From: a virus
Lineage: Duplodnaviria > Heunggongvirae > Uroviricota > Caudoviricetes
IMG/VR virus record: IMGVR_UViG_2778260995_000005
Length of the DNA stretch: 7,186 nucleotides
Direction: 5' to 3' (one strand)
Of this stretch, positions 1 to 7,186 are shown one piece after another. Numbering within the stretch: position 1 is the stretch's first letter; each line of letters opens with the position of its first letter. The translations under genes were made by a program, and so were the position numbers. The notes under the pieces were generated by a model that was not told the DNA's origin, ran no database searches, and was given only the letters and a program-made list of their open reading frames with translations.

Positions 1-413
1 TTCGGTACCACACAACCGGGATCGACGGGCAGCAGTTCAGCCACTTCGCCAAATGCTTTCACTTTGTAGGCGTAAAAATTTCCCCTCAGACACAGACAGG
101 TGACCACCAGCTCCCAGAACTCCTGCGGCGTCATATAGCTATTGGGATGCGTGGAGATCAGTTTATGCAGACGTTCGCCGGTGGCTCTCTGCTTCAGGCT
201 GCCGTTCAGGTGATACAGATTGCAGGGCAACATCCCGACCGACTCTGCCAGCACTCTGACGCAGGAAAAAACCGCCGTCAGTCGCATGGCTCGCTGACTG
301 CTGATCTGCTTTCCGGTATAGGTGTCGTAGGACAACCCGATGGCATCCGCCAGCTCTGCTGGCGTGGTCACCGGTGCGTCACTTTTTCGTTGAAATAATC
401 CCGAAAAGAACAC
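1..413 (-). CDS. Portal protein, HK97-family, N-terminal part (gene continues past window start)
   Basis: Absent from the ORF track because it has no in-window stop. The minus-strand frame is open from GTG at 413..411 to position 1, bounded upstream by an in-frame TAA at 419..417. Translation [85 protein letters not shown]... has the AVFxCVRxLAE-type N-terminal region I associate with HK97-family portals. A GGAGG Shine-Dalgarno sits 6 nt upstream of the GTG. Position directly downstream of TerL is the canonical portal slot. Confidence 0.7.
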   Translation of the reverse strand, partial: MFFSGLFQRKSDAPVTTPAELADAIGLSYDTYTGKQISSQRAMRLTAVFSCVRVLAESVGMLPCNLYHLNGSLKQRATGERLHKLISTHPNSYMTPQEFWELVVTCLCLRGNFYAYKVKAFGEVAELLPVDPGCVVP

Positions 414-595
414 TATTTACCTCCACCAACAGACAGCTGTGTACGGTCGAGATATCGCGCCACCAGCCACGACCAGAACAGGCACAACGCCCCGGCAACA
501 ACAAACCCCGCCGGGGGATAAATCAGCCAGGCACCATACGCCAGCAAAAGCGCCCCCAGCACGCCCACCAGAGGCGCGAGAATCAGCATGATCAT
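413..595 (-). CDS. Hypothetical small hydrophobic protein (60 aa, two predicted TM segments)
   Basis: ATG at 595..593 is preceded by GAGGT about 5 nt upstream and lies 11 nt after the TerL stop. Codon usage is host-like and CTG-rich. Sequence [60 protein letters not shown] is almost wholly hydrophobic with a charged C-terminus. Its last codons contain the portal SD and its stop overlaps the portal GTG (TAGTG). No family recognised. Confidence 0.5.
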
Positions 596-2340: not shown

Positions 2341-2831
2341 GATTCGATGATTTTCAGAAACGGGTTAGTGGTTTTCTTCTGCCCCGCCAGGCCAATCAGA
2401 CGCTGACGGCTGCTGGGGTCGAGTCCGAGCATTGCCCCCGTGCTGCTCATCTCGGACTCCTGTTCTTTTTTGGCGGTCAGCTCCGGATTTTTGACCATGC
2501 CGCCCATTGCACCGGTGATGGTGTTGCCCTGTCTGGCAATATTTTTCACGGCACGTCGCCAGAACTCGTAGGCCACGCACCACCGCTCAAGCACCGCGAG
2601 GTCAGTCACGCACAGCAGGCCCTGACCGCAGAGTTCTTTAGTTGTCAGTTGCCACATGATCGTAGCGAGAGGGAGATCTTCTTCAGCGAACCACTCCGGT
2701 GGCTCAACACCTTTGATGGGCGTAAAAACAGGTTCATCTTTATTCAGGGCTCGCTTGCCGGGGTTTCCGGCCAGCGCCTTGCGCGCCGTTGGCTTGGGGC
2801 GACGCCCGGAACGCCCCGCCGTTCCAGCCAT
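2337..2831 (-). CDS. terS: Terminase small subunit (P27 family)
   Basis: N-terminus [34 protein letters not shown] resembles the P27-family TerS signature. Preferred start is ATG at 2831..2829 with AGGAG 8 nt upstream; the track's GTG at 2840 has no usable spacing to an SD. Translationally coupled to terL. Confidence 0.85.
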
Positions 2832-2861
2832 ATGCGGCACTCCTGGTTAAATTTCATTTTT

Positions 2862-2940
2862 CGCGGGTATAAAAAAACGATGGGGCGGGCAGTCCGGAAG
2901 ACGTCAGGTCACAGGGATTTGACCCGCCCCTCCCCTCTGG
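2862..2940. other. Candidate cos/packaging site: GC-rich inverted repeat with adjacent A-tract in the HNH-terS intergenic region
   Basis: Non-coding gap 2841..2956. It contains an 8-bp inverted repeat GGGGCGGG (2882..2889) and CCCGCCCC (2923..2930) flanking a 33-nt spacer with a GACGTC palindrome (2900..2905), plus an A7 tract at 2871..2877. In HK97-type phages cos lies between the HNH gene and terS. On the minus strand the same structure followed by a T-run could instead act as a terminator. Confidence 0.3.
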
Positions 2941-2956
2941 CAGTGGGAACTGGTTC

Positions 2957-3307
2957 TTACTTCAACCGTTCACGGGCCGTCTTCGCCTTATGACACGGCC
3001 AGCACAGGCTCTGCAGATTGCTGTCGGCATCAGTGCCGCCATGCGCTTTAGGGATGATGTGGTCAACGGTTTTCGCCTCACGTACCACACCACCACGCAG
3101 ACATAACTGACACAGTCCTTTGTCACGCTTGAGCACACGTTCACGGATAACATCCCATTTCGAACCATAACCGCGCTGGTGTCTGGACTGGCCCGGCTTG
3201 TATTGCTTCCAGCCTTCACTTTTGTGGCTTTCGCAATAGCCTGACGGGTCAGTTGTGGTATGGCGGCAGCCGCGAACACGGCAGGCTTTTGGGGTTCGTG
3301 GTGGCAT
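2957..3307 (-). CDS. HNH endonuclease (terminase-associated, HK97 gp74-like)
   Basis: Motifs CxxxGC...GYC near the N-terminus and CQLC...DHIIP...N...CWPCH at the C-terminus form a zinc-finger HNH fold. Preferred start is ATG at 3307..3305 (MPPRTPKACRVRGC...) with GGAG 5 nt upstream. The track's longer start at 3376 would read through the terminator hairpin and overlap the upstream gene's stop. Confidence 0.9.
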   Translation of the reverse strand: MPPRTPKACRVRGCRHTTTDPSGYCESHKSEGWKQYKPGQSRHQRGYGSKWDVIRERVLKRDKGLCQLCLRGGVVREAKTVDHIIPKAHGGTDADSNLQSLCWPCHKAKTARERLK

Positions 3308-3316
3308 GCTGGCTCC

Positions 3317-3341
3317 AATAAAAAGCCCCGCGACGCGAGGC
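3317..3341 (-). terminator. Rho-independent terminator downstream of the 67-aa membrane protein gene
   Basis: Minus-strand RNA reads GCCUCGC-GUC-GCGGGGC followed by UUUUUAUU. That is a 7-bp GC-rich stem with one G-U pair, a 3-nt loop and a U-run, about 30 nt after the stop at 3373. Confidence 0.55.
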
Positions 3342-3372
3342 TTAGACAGAAAAAACACCGGATAAGATCTGG

Positions 3373-3576
3373 TCATTCTTCCTTTTTAATAATGACTTCT
3401 CGAGGGCGCAATTGTTGGATAGCACGACAAATACAATATGGAATAACTGCCCATGCTACTCCCATTGCTGCACCTGCAGCCTGTTGTGGAGCACTCTGAG
3501 CACCGAAAACCCCGAGGATTCCTTCAATAAATCCAATAGCACTACACAAAAGACTGATGACCCAGAGAATTTTCAT
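3373..3576 (-). CDS. Hypothetical small membrane protein (67 aa, two predicted TM helices, glycine-zipper-like); moron
   Basis: ATG at 3576..3574 with AAGGAG 9 nt upstream. Sequence MKILWVISLLCSAIGFIEGILGVFGAQSAPQQAAGAAMGVAWAVIPYCICRAIQQLRPREVIIKKEE has two hydrophobic segments, a short polar linker and a charged C-terminus. GC is visibly lower than the flanking terminase and lysis genes. Preceded by a 117-bp AT-rich intergenic region and followed by an intrinsic terminator. Confidence 0.6.
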   Translation of the reverse strand: MKILWVISLLCSAIGFIEGILGVFGAQSAPQQAAGAAMGVAWAVIPYCICRAIQQLRPREVIIKKEE

Positions 3577-3693
3577 AAACCCAAACTCCTTTTAAATAAA
3601 CACATTACTAGGATAATTCTCATAAAATGTTAGTAAAGTATTTTCAGGAAAATAGCGTATCACTGCCTATTTTTGACACTGATGCTGGGATAA

Positions 3694-4068
3694 TTATTCC
3701 GATCGCTGGAGTTGCTCATGATGATACAGAGCGAGAATCAGGTCATAAGACCCTTGCCTGTCTTTGTAACCAGTTTTATCAACCAATTCAGCTTTACTGA
3801 TTCCGGGTAAATCAAGAATCAGATTCGCAACTTCAATTGCCCTTTGGTACAACTTACCGCCTTTTTTCTCCCCATGCAGTGGTTTTACATTCTTCAGGTA
3901 ACCGCTATCCGCCAGGGCGAGAAATGTTGCCCTTGGGCATATCTTCTTTCTTGACGATTCGCTTTCTGTAACCTCTGCGATAGCTGCATCCCATGCATCA
4001 CGAGGAGTCATTGAGCTATCAGCCACCAAATGATAAGCGATTAAAGCAACGTGAGCGTATTGAGACAT
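3694..4068 (-). CDS. Hypothetical soluble protein (~124 aa; 141 aa if the GTG at 4119 is used), unknown function
   Basis: ORF on the late-operon strand immediately downstream of Rz. Preferred start is ATG at 4068..4066 with GGAAG about 5 nt upstream; the GTG at 4119 overlaps Rz by 13 nt and lacks a good SD. No TM segment and no family I can assign. Lower GC than neighbours. Confidence 0.6.
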   Translation of the reverse strand: MSQYAHVALIAYHLVADSSMTPRDAWDAAIAEVTESESSRKKICPRATFLALADSGYLKNVKPLHGEKKGGKLYQRAIEVANLILDLPGISKAELVDKTGYKDRQGSYDLILALYHHEQLQRSE

Positions 4069-4106
4069 AATGCTTCCATATACAAAAATCTTATGATAAG
4101 ACTTTT

Positions 4107-4550
4107 CTAATATGAACACTGTGATCTCACATATTCTTGCAGGCCATTCAATTGGTTAGTTATGGTTTCGATGCGCTCTCTGAGAACGAAATAATCCCGT
4201 TGAGCGGTGTCAGTAAGTCTGGGGCTGGAAGCATCATCCACGCCGGAGGCGGCGGTGGTTTTATGCTTGTCCGGACAGACTGCTTTGACGTGCAGCCACT
4301 TACGACCAGCAGAAACATCAGCACGAAGACTTTCGATAGTCGCGTTAGCATCAGCAAGCTCCTTTGTGTATCTGGCGTCGAGTTCAGCTACATCATGTTG
4401 ACGCTTCTGCATGTCAGCGATGATGGATGTGGCTTTGTCGCGCTGTTCTTTGTAGGTCATGGCGTTATCACGGTAATGATTAACAGCCCATGACAGGCAG
4501 ACGATGATGCTGATAACCAGAGCGGAGATAATCGCGGTTACTCTACTCAT
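4107..4550 (-). CDS. Rz: Rz i-spanin (inner-membrane spanin subunit)
   Basis: [30 protein letters not shown]... closely resembles lambda/phage-21 Rz: N-terminal TM, coiled-coil periplasmic domain. ATG at 4550..4548 overlaps the endolysin stop as ATGA. The track's longer start at 4562 is rejected. Confidence 0.9.
4160..4351 (-). CDS. Rz1: Rz1 o-spanin (outer-membrane lipoprotein), embedded in Rz in the +1 frame
   Basis: [25 protein letters not shown]...KPPPPPAW...PLNGIIS has a lipoprotein signal with lipobox VVSGC and the proline-rich mature region typical of lambda Rz1. ATG at 4351..4349 with AGGAG 7 nt upstream; the track used a TTG two codons earlier. Lies entirely within Rz. Confidence 0.85.
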
Positions 4551-5447: not shown

Positions 5448-6179
5448 TTACATCATGTCTTTTTCTAAAAAAAATCTTGATGAATATTGATGGGGAGGAA
5501 CACCAAAATATCTTCTGAAAACACTCACAAAATATGACGTGTTTTCATAACCGCATATCTCAGCAACTTTTCCAACAGAATATAAATTGTAGCTTAATAA
5601 CCTTTCCGCCATCACCATTCGCTCTTCAAGAATTAACTTACTAAATGATAAGCCTTCGTGCTTTAATTTTCTTTTTAACAGACTTTCACTCAGATACAGT
5701 CTTGAAGATATATCACAAAGTCTCCATGCTGCAGATATATCCGTGTGAATAATAGCCTTAACTTTACTTCCTAAACTATTAAGACATCCAAATAAAAAAC
5801 TTTGCACTATTTTCTCTGAAGATAAGATAGCAAGACATGCAAGTGATATTTGATTTCTAACAAAATCCACAGTTCTGCCATCACAATTCAAGCATGCAAT
5901 CAAGTTCTTTAACAATGAAAAATCTTCACATTCCACCATCAAGTATGCCGGATAAAACCTTCTTACAGAAAAAGGTGAGAGTGTGTTGCTTTTAAAGAAA
6001 TCATTAACTGTTTTCTCTTCAACATCTATGATCATTACATGATCTATATTTGATGAAAAAAAATCTTTTAAATTGTAATCAATGAGAACAGCACTTCCTT
6101 TTTTAAACAAAATATCTTCTTTACCAATTCGGACATCAAACGAGTTCAACACCAAAATGATAGAACATATGTATGGCAT
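5448..6179 (-). CDS. AraC/XylS-family transcriptional regulator (AppY/PatE-like), AT-rich
   Basis: C-terminal paired HTH region (WRLCDISSRLYLSESLLKRKLKHEGLSFSKLILEERMVMAERLL...VGKVAEICGYENTSYFVSVFRRYFGVPPHQY) is typical of AraC family. N-terminus MPYICSIILVLNSFDV...ILFKKGSAVLI resembles AppY-like regulators by recall. Preferred start is ATG at 6179..6177 with AGGTGG 5 nt upstream; the track used a GTG at 6188. Markedly AT-rich coding sequence. Confidence 0.85.
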   Translation of the reverse strand: MPYICSIILVLNSFDVRIGKEDILFKKGSAVLIDYNLKDFFSSNIDHVMIIDVEEKTVNDFFKSNTLSPFSVRRFYPAYLMVECEDFSLLKNLIACLNCDGRTVDFVRNQISLACLAILSSEKIVQSFLFGCLNSLGSKVKAIIHTDISAAWRLCDISSRLYLSESLLKRKLKHEGLSFSKLILEERMVMAERLLSYNLYSVGKVAEICGYENTSYFVSVFRRYFGVPPHQYSSRFFLEKDMM

Positions 6180-6487
6180 ATTATCCACCTGATATCATTG
6201 GGGTTACACCAGGTAAGTATAGGTGGAAAATCAATATTCGCCAGTTCAACAATAAGGAAAATTTCATTGCATCACAAGTATAAAATTATGTATTTAACTC
6301 ACAAAGACAAATTATTAAACCAATCTGTTATATTATATATAGCTGCGTGGAATCATAATATTATATATTTTGACTGGCATGTTTACCAACTTTAAGTTGC
6401 ATCTCAATTGTTTCTTCAGCGTAAACAGAGTTTTTATACAAACTGACACTCTGGGTATCATAGTGTAGTTTTTACGATTGTAAATAT

Positions 6488-6530: not shown

Positions 6531-7186
6531 TTAATTTACCATCAGTCTTAGAGCCAGTTCGTCCGGATAGGGATCGAAGTAATTCTGTGTAAGCAAGTAA
6601 TCATTAGGATACTCACCCAGATAATGCTTCAGCAGAGTCAACGGCGCAAGAAGAGGTAATGTGCCAGAACGATAGTTAAGTATAACCTCGCTCAACTCTT
6701 TACGCTGGCGTGTACTTAAGTAGTTACTAAAATACCCCTGTATATGCATCAGCACATTCGTGTGATTTTTACGTGATGCAGGTTTTCTGAGAATCGCCAT
6801 CAGCTTATCACGATACACCTCAAAGTATGATTCAAGGTCCGCCCACTCGTGTATTGCAGCCACAAATGGTCCCATATCTTTATAGCCTGCCTGACTATGC
6901 GCCAACAACTGAAGCTTATAACGACTATGAAAAGCTAATAACTCTCTTCTTGATAATTTCTCCTTGTAAAGGTGATTGAGCTCATGCAAAGCAAAAACTC
7001 TTTCAACAAAATTCTCACGAAGCACTGGATCATGTAATCGCCCATCCTCTTCAACCGGTAGCCAGGAAAACTTTTCCATCAAAGTACTCGTAAATAGTCC
7101 CACTCCATCGTAAGCGTAAACTGACCGCCGTATGTAGCCATCAGACGAGAATTGGTAACTTAGACGCCCATCTGATATAGACGGAC
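6531..7186 (-). CDS. DUF1722 (YbgA-like) domain protein, 5'-truncated by the window edge; possibly a DUF523-DUF1722 fusion
   Basis: The minus-strand frame is open from the window end (7186) to the stop at 6531..6533; the track's GTG start at 7103 is internal. The C-terminal region (LLAFHSRYKLQLLAHSQAGYKDMGPFVAAIHEW...YLLTQNYFDPYPDELALRLMVN) matches my recollection of the DUF1722/YbgA family. Moderately AT-rich. Confidence 0.55.
   Translation of the reverse strand, partial: PSISDGRLSYQFSSDGYIRRSVYAYDGVGLFTSTLMEKFSWLPVEEDGRLHDPVLRENFVERVFALHELNHLYKEKLSRRELLAFHSRYKLQLLAHSQAGYKDMGPFVAAIHEWADLESYFEVYRDKLMAILRKPASRKNHTNVLMHIQGYFSNYLSTRQRKELSEVILNYRSGTLPLLAPLTLLKHYLGEYPNDYLLTQNYFDPYPDELALRLMVN

Follow-up and report, generated by a model that had tools for sequence, protein, structure and literature searches.

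A 67-codon membrane-protein gene beside the packaging genes of an SfI-like prophage: a mobile cassette that is very likely a moron

Introduction

Morons are units of extra DNA lying between genes that are adjacent in related phages, with their own promoter and factor-independent terminator, a deviant base composition, signs of horizontal transfer and expression while the prophage is repressed (Juhala et al., 2000; Hendrix et al., 2000; definition given in PMC3594210). Gene 15 of phage HK97 is the founding example (Juhala et al., 2000; Cumby et al., 2012; review in PMC3594210). Its product, gp15, acts in the inner membrane to exclude superinfecting phages, with a specificity that has been mapped to the tail region of the phage (PMC3594210). 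Here we analyzed a 67-codon gene on the minus strand of a 7,186-nt stretch of tailed-phage DNA (IMG/VR record IMGVR_UViG_2778260995_000005; the whole stretch is hereafter called the window). The window belongs to a lambdoid, HK97-like cos prophage of Escherichia coli that resembles Shigella phage SfI. The gene and its signals form a cassette between the lysis genes, followed by a DUF6979 gene, and the HNH-terS-terL packaging genes. Sequence comparison indicates that this locus is very likely a moron, that is, a mobile autonomous transcription unit among the accessory DNA that closes the right end of a cos prophage of the SfI/HK97 kind.

The window gene resembles HK97 gene 15 in several respects: the open reading frame (ORF) is about 60-70 codons long, it comes with a promoter and an intrinsic terminator, it is inserted between genes adjacent in related phages, and its product is assigned to the inner membrane; in addition, Pantoea homologues of the window protein sit in the gp15 slot. 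The two differ in that gp15 apparently has one N-terminal hydrophobic segment and a polar, charged C-terminal half, whereas the window protein is a two-helix hairpin, and in that gene 15 belongs to the tail operon while the window copy stands at the lysis/cos junction. Bor of phage lambda is an outer-membrane lipoprotein whose gene is transcribed in the opposite direction, unlike the window gene, which lies on the late strand and would encode an inner-membrane hairpin. Both genes occupy the same hot spot, as the last genes before cos and the terminase, and both are dispensable, variably present and expected to be expressed from the prophage (cf. PMC3594210).

Other described systems are comparable in part. 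SieA of P22 and Imm of T4 are small phage or prophage inner-membrane proteins acting at DNA entry (PMC10883804, PMC11436027), a functional class that we propose by analogy for the window protein, although they are unrelated to it in sequence as far as the libraries used (PADLOC, PHROG) show. The class II holins and the S21 pinholin (PF04971) also have about 70 amino acids (aa), two transmembrane (TM) helices, an N-in/C-in topology, a charged C-terminal tail, a small-residue face and genes near those for endolysin and spanins. In contrast to these, the window protein matches no such family, has its own promoter and terminator, carries an invariant turn and has homologues far from lysis genes; an S21-type holin is moreover already encoded in the window (5259-5044) by a separate gene. 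The toxins Hok, Ldr and TisB are likewise small hydrophobic peptides from compact stand-alone units, but they have a single TM helix and are controlled by an antisense RNA with conserved structure in the RNA; the window gene showed none of these features.

The cassette moves as a block

A search for the ORF in other prophages, as a sequence-only reading of the window had suggested, found 112 viral-contig and 17 genome loci. Our sample for comparison comprised 45 protein clusters (90% identity), all 17 genome loci and 80 of the 112 viral-contig loci. When column conservation was followed over 71 non-redundant modules, it jumped near position 3645, just 5' of the -35 hexamer, and collapsed after about 3317, at the T-run of the terminator. 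Between these limits the peaks fell on the TTTACT and TATCCT hexamers, the Shine-Dalgarno (SD) sequence, the codons (with third-position dips), both terminator arms and the T-run. The DNA flanking the cassette was distributed among 36 upstream and 20 downstream unrelated clusters, which occurred in 44 combinations and in several genera. The downstream neighbors included packaging modules of three unrelated kinds, namely a lambda Nu1/A-like module, a 163/700-aa terminase pair and the HNH-P27 module. As judged from these alignments, the promoter-to-terminator unit moves as a block.

Related phages show the site without the cassette. In SfV, the gene for spanin Rz1 adjoins a 90%-identical HNH gene with no cassette between them. 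The site consists of 292 bp devoid of genes in SfIV and E. coli JNE131328, and it is occupied by other genes in ST64B and E. coli CH458. When the HNH gene is compared with those of SfV, SfIV, SfII and ST64B, homology ends at the ATG. Across E. coli genomes, the HNH gene was found in approximately 1300 and the cassette in approximately 51. Over the 400 bp around the 67-aa gene, identity is 100% with phage SfI, and 52 of the 5426 complete E. coli genomes contain prophages with an identity of 99% or more. The G+C content of the cassette ranged from 0.33 to 0.46, versus 0.54 to 0.63 for the HNH and terS genes.

Promoter and terminator

The 117 nt upstream of the ORF (3693-3577), which follow the stop codon of the DUF6979 gene (3696-3694), had been put forward as a place to look for a sigma70 promoter, and comparison with relatives indeed revealed a conserved candidate, TTTACT-16-TATCCT. 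This -35/-10 pair was found in 50 of 60 non-redundant upstream regions. Among the 50 relatives matching the pattern, TTTACT was present in 46 and TATCCT in 38, with the others having TATCAT, TATTCT, TATTAT or TATGCT, all of which keep A2 and T6. The spacer was 16 nt long in 49 of the 50, while its sequence took 26 distinct forms. Constant hexamers at a constant distance with a free spacer are, at the sequence level, the signature of selection on a sigma70 promoter. Transcription would start near position 3603, and we infer from the same comparison that the promoter is active and that the cassette is transcribed from it in the lysogen. In one cassette subgroup (L037-L042, L087), a hairpin-like element, CAGGCATTCACTGAGTGCCTG, is conserved just 5' of the -35 hexamer, approximately 70-100 nt upstream of the ORF.

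A terminator had also been noted about 30 nt after the gene and before the HNH gene, and it was recovered there. The hairpin AAGCCTCGC-GTC-GCGGGGCTT spans 3343-3323 and begins 29 nt past the stop codon; TTTTTATT then runs to 3317, which leaves 10 nt before the HNH start at 3307. The HNH gene has its own SD, GGAG (3316-3313), and the same ATG at 3307 is used in the Prokaryotic Genome Annotation Pipeline (PGAP) annotation and in the SfI record. A terminator scan of the window returned five sites, versus 1.3 +/- 1.2 in shuffled sequences, and the one at 3343-3317 was the strongest (9 pairs, 6 of them G-C). A hairpin followed by a T-run was present after the gene in 33 sequence variants. In the aligned subset (21 of the 33), 95% of pair cells were paired compared to 36-64% for slid controls, and none of 500 shuffles matched the observed pairing or covariation score. 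The loops vary freely (GTAA, AAAA, TTAT, ACCA, CTTA, and others), some copies have U-A or C-G in place of the U-G wobble pair of the stem, and others have a wholly different stem. A weaker hairpin, ACCAGATCTTATCCGGT, lies closer to the gene; it is specific to the SfI-type copy and not conserved in other cassettes, and is possibly a first terminator.

Near-identical hairpins of the form (A)GCCTCGC-loop-GCG(G/A)GGC(T) with a T-run terminate several unrelated cargo units (L100 2851-2991; L101 ~2390-2450; many viral loci), and this recurrent hairpin of the accessory region may represent a terminator module common to these units or mark a hot spot of recombination.

Every sequence-level element of the moron definition is thus found: extra DNA between genes that are adjacent in SfV and separated only by a gap without genes in SfIV and JNE131328, a promoter (TTTACT-16-TATCCT) and a factor-independent terminator (3343-3317) of its own, and a deviant G+C content together with the 44 flank combinations as signs of horizontal transfer. 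Some observations speak against this interpretation. The promoter matches the consensus at only 8 of 12 positions and falls below the threshold of a consensus scan, which for this reason missed it and made the comparison with relatives necessary. Taken by itself, the 65-nt 3' region has an unexceptional, non-significant folding energy (z = -1.44), and the case for terminator function is therefore comparative. Finally, the G+C content on the DUF6979 side is similar to that of the cassette, so that the contrast in composition holds on the HNH side only. The architecture itself is textbook and of an already known kind, and the modest novelty is in the protein family. Natural swapping among more than 40 contexts has nonetheless defined the boundaries, promoter and terminator of this moron, making it a test case for prophage-expressed genes.

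A two-helix protein under purifying selection

The encoded protein has the two hydrophobic helices and the charged tail described in the sequence-only reading, and the near-consensus SD, AAGGAG, is present as that reading had stated; in relatives, the SD is kept as AAAGGAG or ATGGAG. The ratio of nonsynonymous to synonymous differences (pN/pS) was 0.134 overall, 0.227 in helix 1, 0.054 in residues 26-53 and 0.118 in the tail. Synonymous differences were saturated throughout the ORF (pS ~0.62), which excludes a conserved overlapping RNA. From these alignments, selection is on the protein and not on the DNA. Two plus-strand ORFs (3260-3499 and 3412-3633) were rejected as genes, the codon-position conservation tracking the minus-strand frame.

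The protein consists of TM1 (residues ~2-25), a turn (26-32), TM2 (~33-53) and a charged tail (54-67), and the AlphaFold2 (AF2) model places helices at 2-25 and 29-56 with a predicted local distance difference test (pLDDT) of 86. The turn-plus-TM2 motif, SAPQQAAGAAMGxAWAVIPYC, is invariant. Invariant residues are A26, A29-P-Q-Q-A-A, A36, A37, A41, V44-I-P-Y-C and A52, and G35, G39, W42 and A43 are nearly so, whereas helix 1 is variable except for W5, G15 and G19. The GxxxG-like spacing proposed earlier therefore holds for helix 2, where G35xxxG39xxxA43 forms a small-residue zipper, but not for the GILGVFGA segment of helix 1, which reads GxxGxxG and has only G19 conserved. The zipper face probably mediates helix packing or oligomerization by self-association. 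Some family members have zinc-ribbon extensions, at the N-terminus in seven and at the C-terminus in seven; as zinc ribbons are cytoplasmic and are fused at either end, the protein would be an N-in/C-in helical hairpin in the inner membrane, with SAPQQ at the periplasmic turn.

This ORF is unannotated in the SfI reference (NC_027339 37695-37895), although it is conserved and under purifying selection; PGAP annotates it as a hypothetical protein, WP_000699783.1. It matches PHROG 12304 (unknown function) over its full length (E = 2.1e-44; residues 1-67 on profile positions 1-67 of 67). Scans of Pfam, NCBIfam and PADLOC gave nothing above threshold for the protein. The Pfam profile PF18895, T4SS_pilin, reached 13.9 bits against a gathering cut-off of 26.6 (E = 0.059), probably through hydrophobic-hairpin similarity only, and Rv2732c (E = 0.12) and the PADLOC model PycC (E = 0.026) were matched at chance level. 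A PDB profile search returned nothing at E <= 1. A BFVD fold search with the AF2 model was likewise empty at E <= 0.001, which is no surprise for a plain helical hairpin. No paper was found in a full-text literature search for the motif APQQAAGAA.

A large family carried by mobile elements

A profile search of 1.84 billion representatives recovered at least 1129 clusters (counted at 50% identity) at E <= 1e-3, of which 178 were at E <= 1e-10, and the family reaches Bacteroidota, Acidobacteriota and Alphaproteobacteria. The motif [SG]AP[QK][QE]AA is retained by 118 of the 147 best distant representatives, and 102 of these 118 also have (V/A/I)(I/V)PY(C/V) exactly 16 residues later. In 50,697 phage records, a detectable homologue was present only in SfI and in Edwardsiella phage Edno5, and a tblastn search of isolated phages with a Pseudomonas-type family member gave no match. 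The protein thus marks a sizeable mobile-element family with an unusually invariant turn and TM2 motif and no curated Pfam, NCBIfam or PADLOC match above threshold.

Several of its genomic homes are in or beside tail modules. In Pantoea prophages, the homologue is followed by a gene for a secreted 175-aa protein, and both lie between the tail chaperone G/T and tape-measure genes, which is exactly the slot of HK97 gene 15. Buttiauxella and Pseudomonas prophages have the homologue and a lipoprotein gene between gpK and gpI, the Buttiauxella lipoprotein being phrog_914. In a Morganella element, the homologue starts 68 nt after the tape-measure gene, and in phage Edno5 its start overlaps the stop codon of a lytic tail/tape-measure-like gene. 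Several distant members adjoin ORFs resembling integrase or recombinase genes. As these gene neighborhoods show, the family travels as cargo on mobile elements, and classic moron slots are where it turns up repeatedly.

In the tail-module copies, a gene for a signal-peptide protein or lipoprotein stands directly 3' of the hairpin gene, with stop and start codons overlapping or nearly so (L107 5252-5779; L011 6210-6545; L012 6576-6923; L103 5216-5560). The scanned partners, all from copies other than the Pseudomonas one, match phrog_1848, phrog_914 and phrog_13007. This pairing suggests two-component versions of the system. Distant members from Xanthomonadales and other groups have one or two zinc-ribbon domains fused at either terminus (P0047, P0050, P0054, P0078, P0082, P0090, P0093, P0177, P0185; L018/L019), and one distant representative has a protein-kinase fragment. 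The hairpin may be a general membrane module.

Proposed mechanism and alternative explanations

The explanation that best accommodates these results, and that we consider probable as a whole, is a moron expressed in the lysogen whose membrane protein is of benefit to that lysogen. The weak-to-moderate sigma70 promoter would drive an mRNA of approximately 290 nt, and the phage repressor is not expected to control it. The strong SD would allow efficient translation, after which the protein would insert in the inner membrane as an N-in/C-in hairpin with a tight periplasmic SAPQQ turn, the TM2 zipper and a short charged tail in the cytoplasm. The terminator would halt transcripts from the cassette promoter before the HNH and terminase genes. 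HNH endonucleases encoded beside cos and terminase genes assist terminase cutting (PMC3592412, PMC9410871), and leakage into the HNH gene in a lysogen would therefore be harmful. Expression of HNH and terminase in the lysogen would risk cutting of the prophage cos site. After induction, late transcription antiterminated by Q would pass the terminator, and HNH would still be made. In lambda, Q-modified late transcription resists terminators; the prophage of E. coli C4 has a Q gene in its upstream part. With such resistance, the 67-aa gene is probably transcribed late too. The earlier proposal that the gene is expressed independently of the late operon is hence supported by the conserved promoter and by block mobility, but the "insulation" on which it leaned needs qualifying, as Q-modified transcription probably passes the terminator.

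Most probably, the protein benefits the lysogen at the membrane, and the nature of that benefit is a far more tentative matter. Exclusion, lysis regulation and a membrane-perturbing effector had all been suggested for it, and by analogy of position exclusion is the best of these. We tentatively propose superinfection exclusion in which the protein, like HK97 gp15, interferes with the tape-measure-mediated passage of DNA across the inner membrane; the sole grounds for this guess are the membrane location, the moron status and the recurrent adjacency to tape-measure genes. Several results weigh against it: BLASTP of the 67-aa protein versus HK97 gp15, as the reference for the gp15/YebO-like exclusion proteins, gave no alignment at E <= 100, the PADLOC defense models contained no match, most copies of the cassette, including that of the window, adjoin lysis genes and not tail genes, and the distant relatives fused to zinc ribbons point to a broader role in membranes, one not necessarily linked to phages. 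Whether the whole family could be a new and widespread class of single-gene superinfection-exclusion or entry-blocking determinants acting against tape-measure-mediated DNA translocation is doubtful. Such a class would be defined by [SG]AP[QK][QE]AA-x9-(V/A/I)(I/V)PY(C/V), with the window protein as a prophage-borne representative and with a periplasmic or lipoprotein partner assisting in the tail-module versions. If exclusion is indeed its role, the gene would represent a widespread form of single-gene phage resistance, with a bearing on the ecology of prophages and on host range in phage therapy against Enterobacterales; otherwise it would be one more hypothetical membrane moron.

A moron with another lysogenic-conversion role, such as helping the cell to tolerate envelope stress, modulating one of its transporters or sensors, or making it resistant to a toxin or bacteriocin, is conceivable, although we would not favor it. 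It has the same architecture and expression logic as exclusion, with only the benefit differing, and the two are computationally inseparable. The size of the family across distant phyla and its fusions to zinc ribbons or a kinase fragment suggest a generic membrane module, and morons encode very diverse functions (PMC3594210). All contexts examined are nevertheless mobile elements (prophage tail or lysis regions and integrase- or recombinase-linked islands), and the repeated siting by tape-measure genes is easier to understand for a phage-directed role. Tape-measure adjacency could instead reflect cooperation, the protein being a membrane factor for DNA entry or assembly by the phage's own tape measure or tail, as the homologues overlapping (Edno5), closely following (Morganella) or immediately preceding (Pantoea) such genes would allow. 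This seems very improbable: an integral inner-membrane protein stays with the cell that made it and could hardly act in the next host, the SfI-type copy stands at a distance from the tail genes under signals of lysogen type at both ends (promoter and terminator), and SfV and SfIV, with HNH genes 90-92% identical, do without the gene, a comparison that covered HNH and not the tail genes.

An unlikely alternative is a lysis accessory protein (antiholin, holin-like protein or timing regulator) made from the late transcript and working with the S21-type pinholin and the SAR-like (signal-anchor-release) endolysin encoded upstream. The gene has the same orientation as the spanin genes and follows them at a distance of 0.5 kb, it lies 1-2.5 kb past the lysis cassette in many diverged phages, and its product resembles class II holins in the respects given above. 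A lysis regulator is disfavored because homologues occur in tail modules, in non-phage elements and in elements without nearby lysis genes, because holin or antiholin homology, which had been named as grounds for reclassifying the gene, was absent from Pfam and PHROGs, and because the holin of the window already has a dual-start MKSM antiholin arrangement. The conserved promoter and terminator also stand against it, the close relatives SfV and SfIV lyse without the gene, and the invariant periplasmic turn is atypical for holins. Least credible of all is a membrane-depolarizing toxin of the type I toxin-antitoxin kind or an abortive-infection effector. A small hydrophobic protein with a glycine/small-residue zipper in TM2 and its own transcription unit would fit such a toxin, but two TM helices and 67 aa are unlike Hok, Ldr and TisB, and no type I toxin homology was found, consistent with the earlier impression from the sequence. 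The search for an antisense RNA was negative: no antisense promoter/terminator pair was detected, no plus-strand promoter was predicted in 2800-4300 besides that at 4060-4089, and Rfam gave only chance-level matches on both strands of 2800-4200. With no antisense element and with saturated synonymous sites that leave no room for a conserved overlapping RNA, a toxin-like effector is disfavored; furthermore, the SD is strong, an SD-sequestering structure is not evident (none was looked for), and PADLOC offers only the chance-level PycC match.

Prophage setting and neighboring genes

The coordinates of the cassette and of its neighbors are collected in Table 1.

Table 1. Features of the cassette and of the surrounding prophage region in the window
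Feature	Position	Strand	Basis or remark
Whole cassette (very likely moron), promoter to terminator T-run	3317..3645	minus	comparative conservation limits
67-codon coding sequence, predicted two-helix inner-membrane protein MKILWVISLLCSAIGFIEGILGVFGAQSAPQQAAGAAMGVAWAVIPYCICRAIQQLRPREVIIKKEE	3373..3576	minus	ORF list, PHROG 12304, PGAP, pN/pS, AF2
SD AAGGAG, 9 nt before ATG	3586..3591	minus	read from sequence
-35-like hexamer TTTACT	3632..3637	minus	column conservation 0.8-0.9 or more
-10-like hexamer TATCCT, 16-nt spacer	3610..3615	minus	comparison with relatives
Predicted intrinsic terminator: 9-bp stem AAGCCTCGC/GCGGGGCTT, loop GTC, then TTTTTATT	3317..3343	minus	scan and conservation
Weak proximal hairpin ACCAGATCTTATCCGGT and GTTTTTT (T6), overlapping the stop codon	3350..3373	minus	terminator scan, folding
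S21-type holin	5259-5044	minus	dual start MKSM
Lysozyme	5044-4547	minus	hydrophobic SAR-like N-terminus
Rz, with Rz1 nested inside	from 4550	minus	
Rz1 lipoprotein ORF, nested in Rz	4160-4357	minus	
DUF6979 gene, upstream neighbor outside the cassette	3694..4068	minus	Pfam DUF6979, E = 4e-28
HNH endonuclease gene, cos-packaging module, downstream neighbor outside the cassette	2957..3307	minus	Pfam HNH, E = 3e-16
P27-type small terminase	2831-2337	minus	
Large terminase	2340-607	minus	
YmfR	595-413	minus	

The lysis cassette of the window is of the phage-21 type, with a dual-start MKSM holin, a SAR-like lysozyme and a nested Rz1. On the packaging side, the SfI record terminates with cos approximately 75 bp past the HNH gene (PMC3636060). 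The DUF6979 gene acts as a separate accessory unit and is missing from SfV, SfIV and ST64B. In E. coli F11 (L101 2453-2827), it has a GCCTCGC...GCGGGGC terminator to itself, beyond which packaging genes of the lambda type begin. A functional link between the DUF6979 gene and the 67-aa gene was rejected, as the two co-occur in the SfI-type context only and DUF6979 has its own terminator elsewhere.

Further cargo genes were observed in the prophage. The YmfR-like gene (413-595, minus strand), between the large terminase and portal genes, encodes a 60-aa two-TM protein matching phrog_502 ("membrane protein", moron category) and is a second membrane cargo gene, sited in the structural operon. Between the Q antiterminator and holin genes are an AraC-type helix-turn-helix gene and a YbgA/DUF1722-family gene (5448-6188 and 6531-7103, both on the minus strand). 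In E. coli C4 (L002 8149-10908), this interval also holds a lipocalin gene on the opposite strand, and in phage SfI the position is occupied by tRNA-Asn and tRNA-Thr. The Q-to-holin interval corresponds to the place of stx in Stx phages and forms a second slot for variable cargo.

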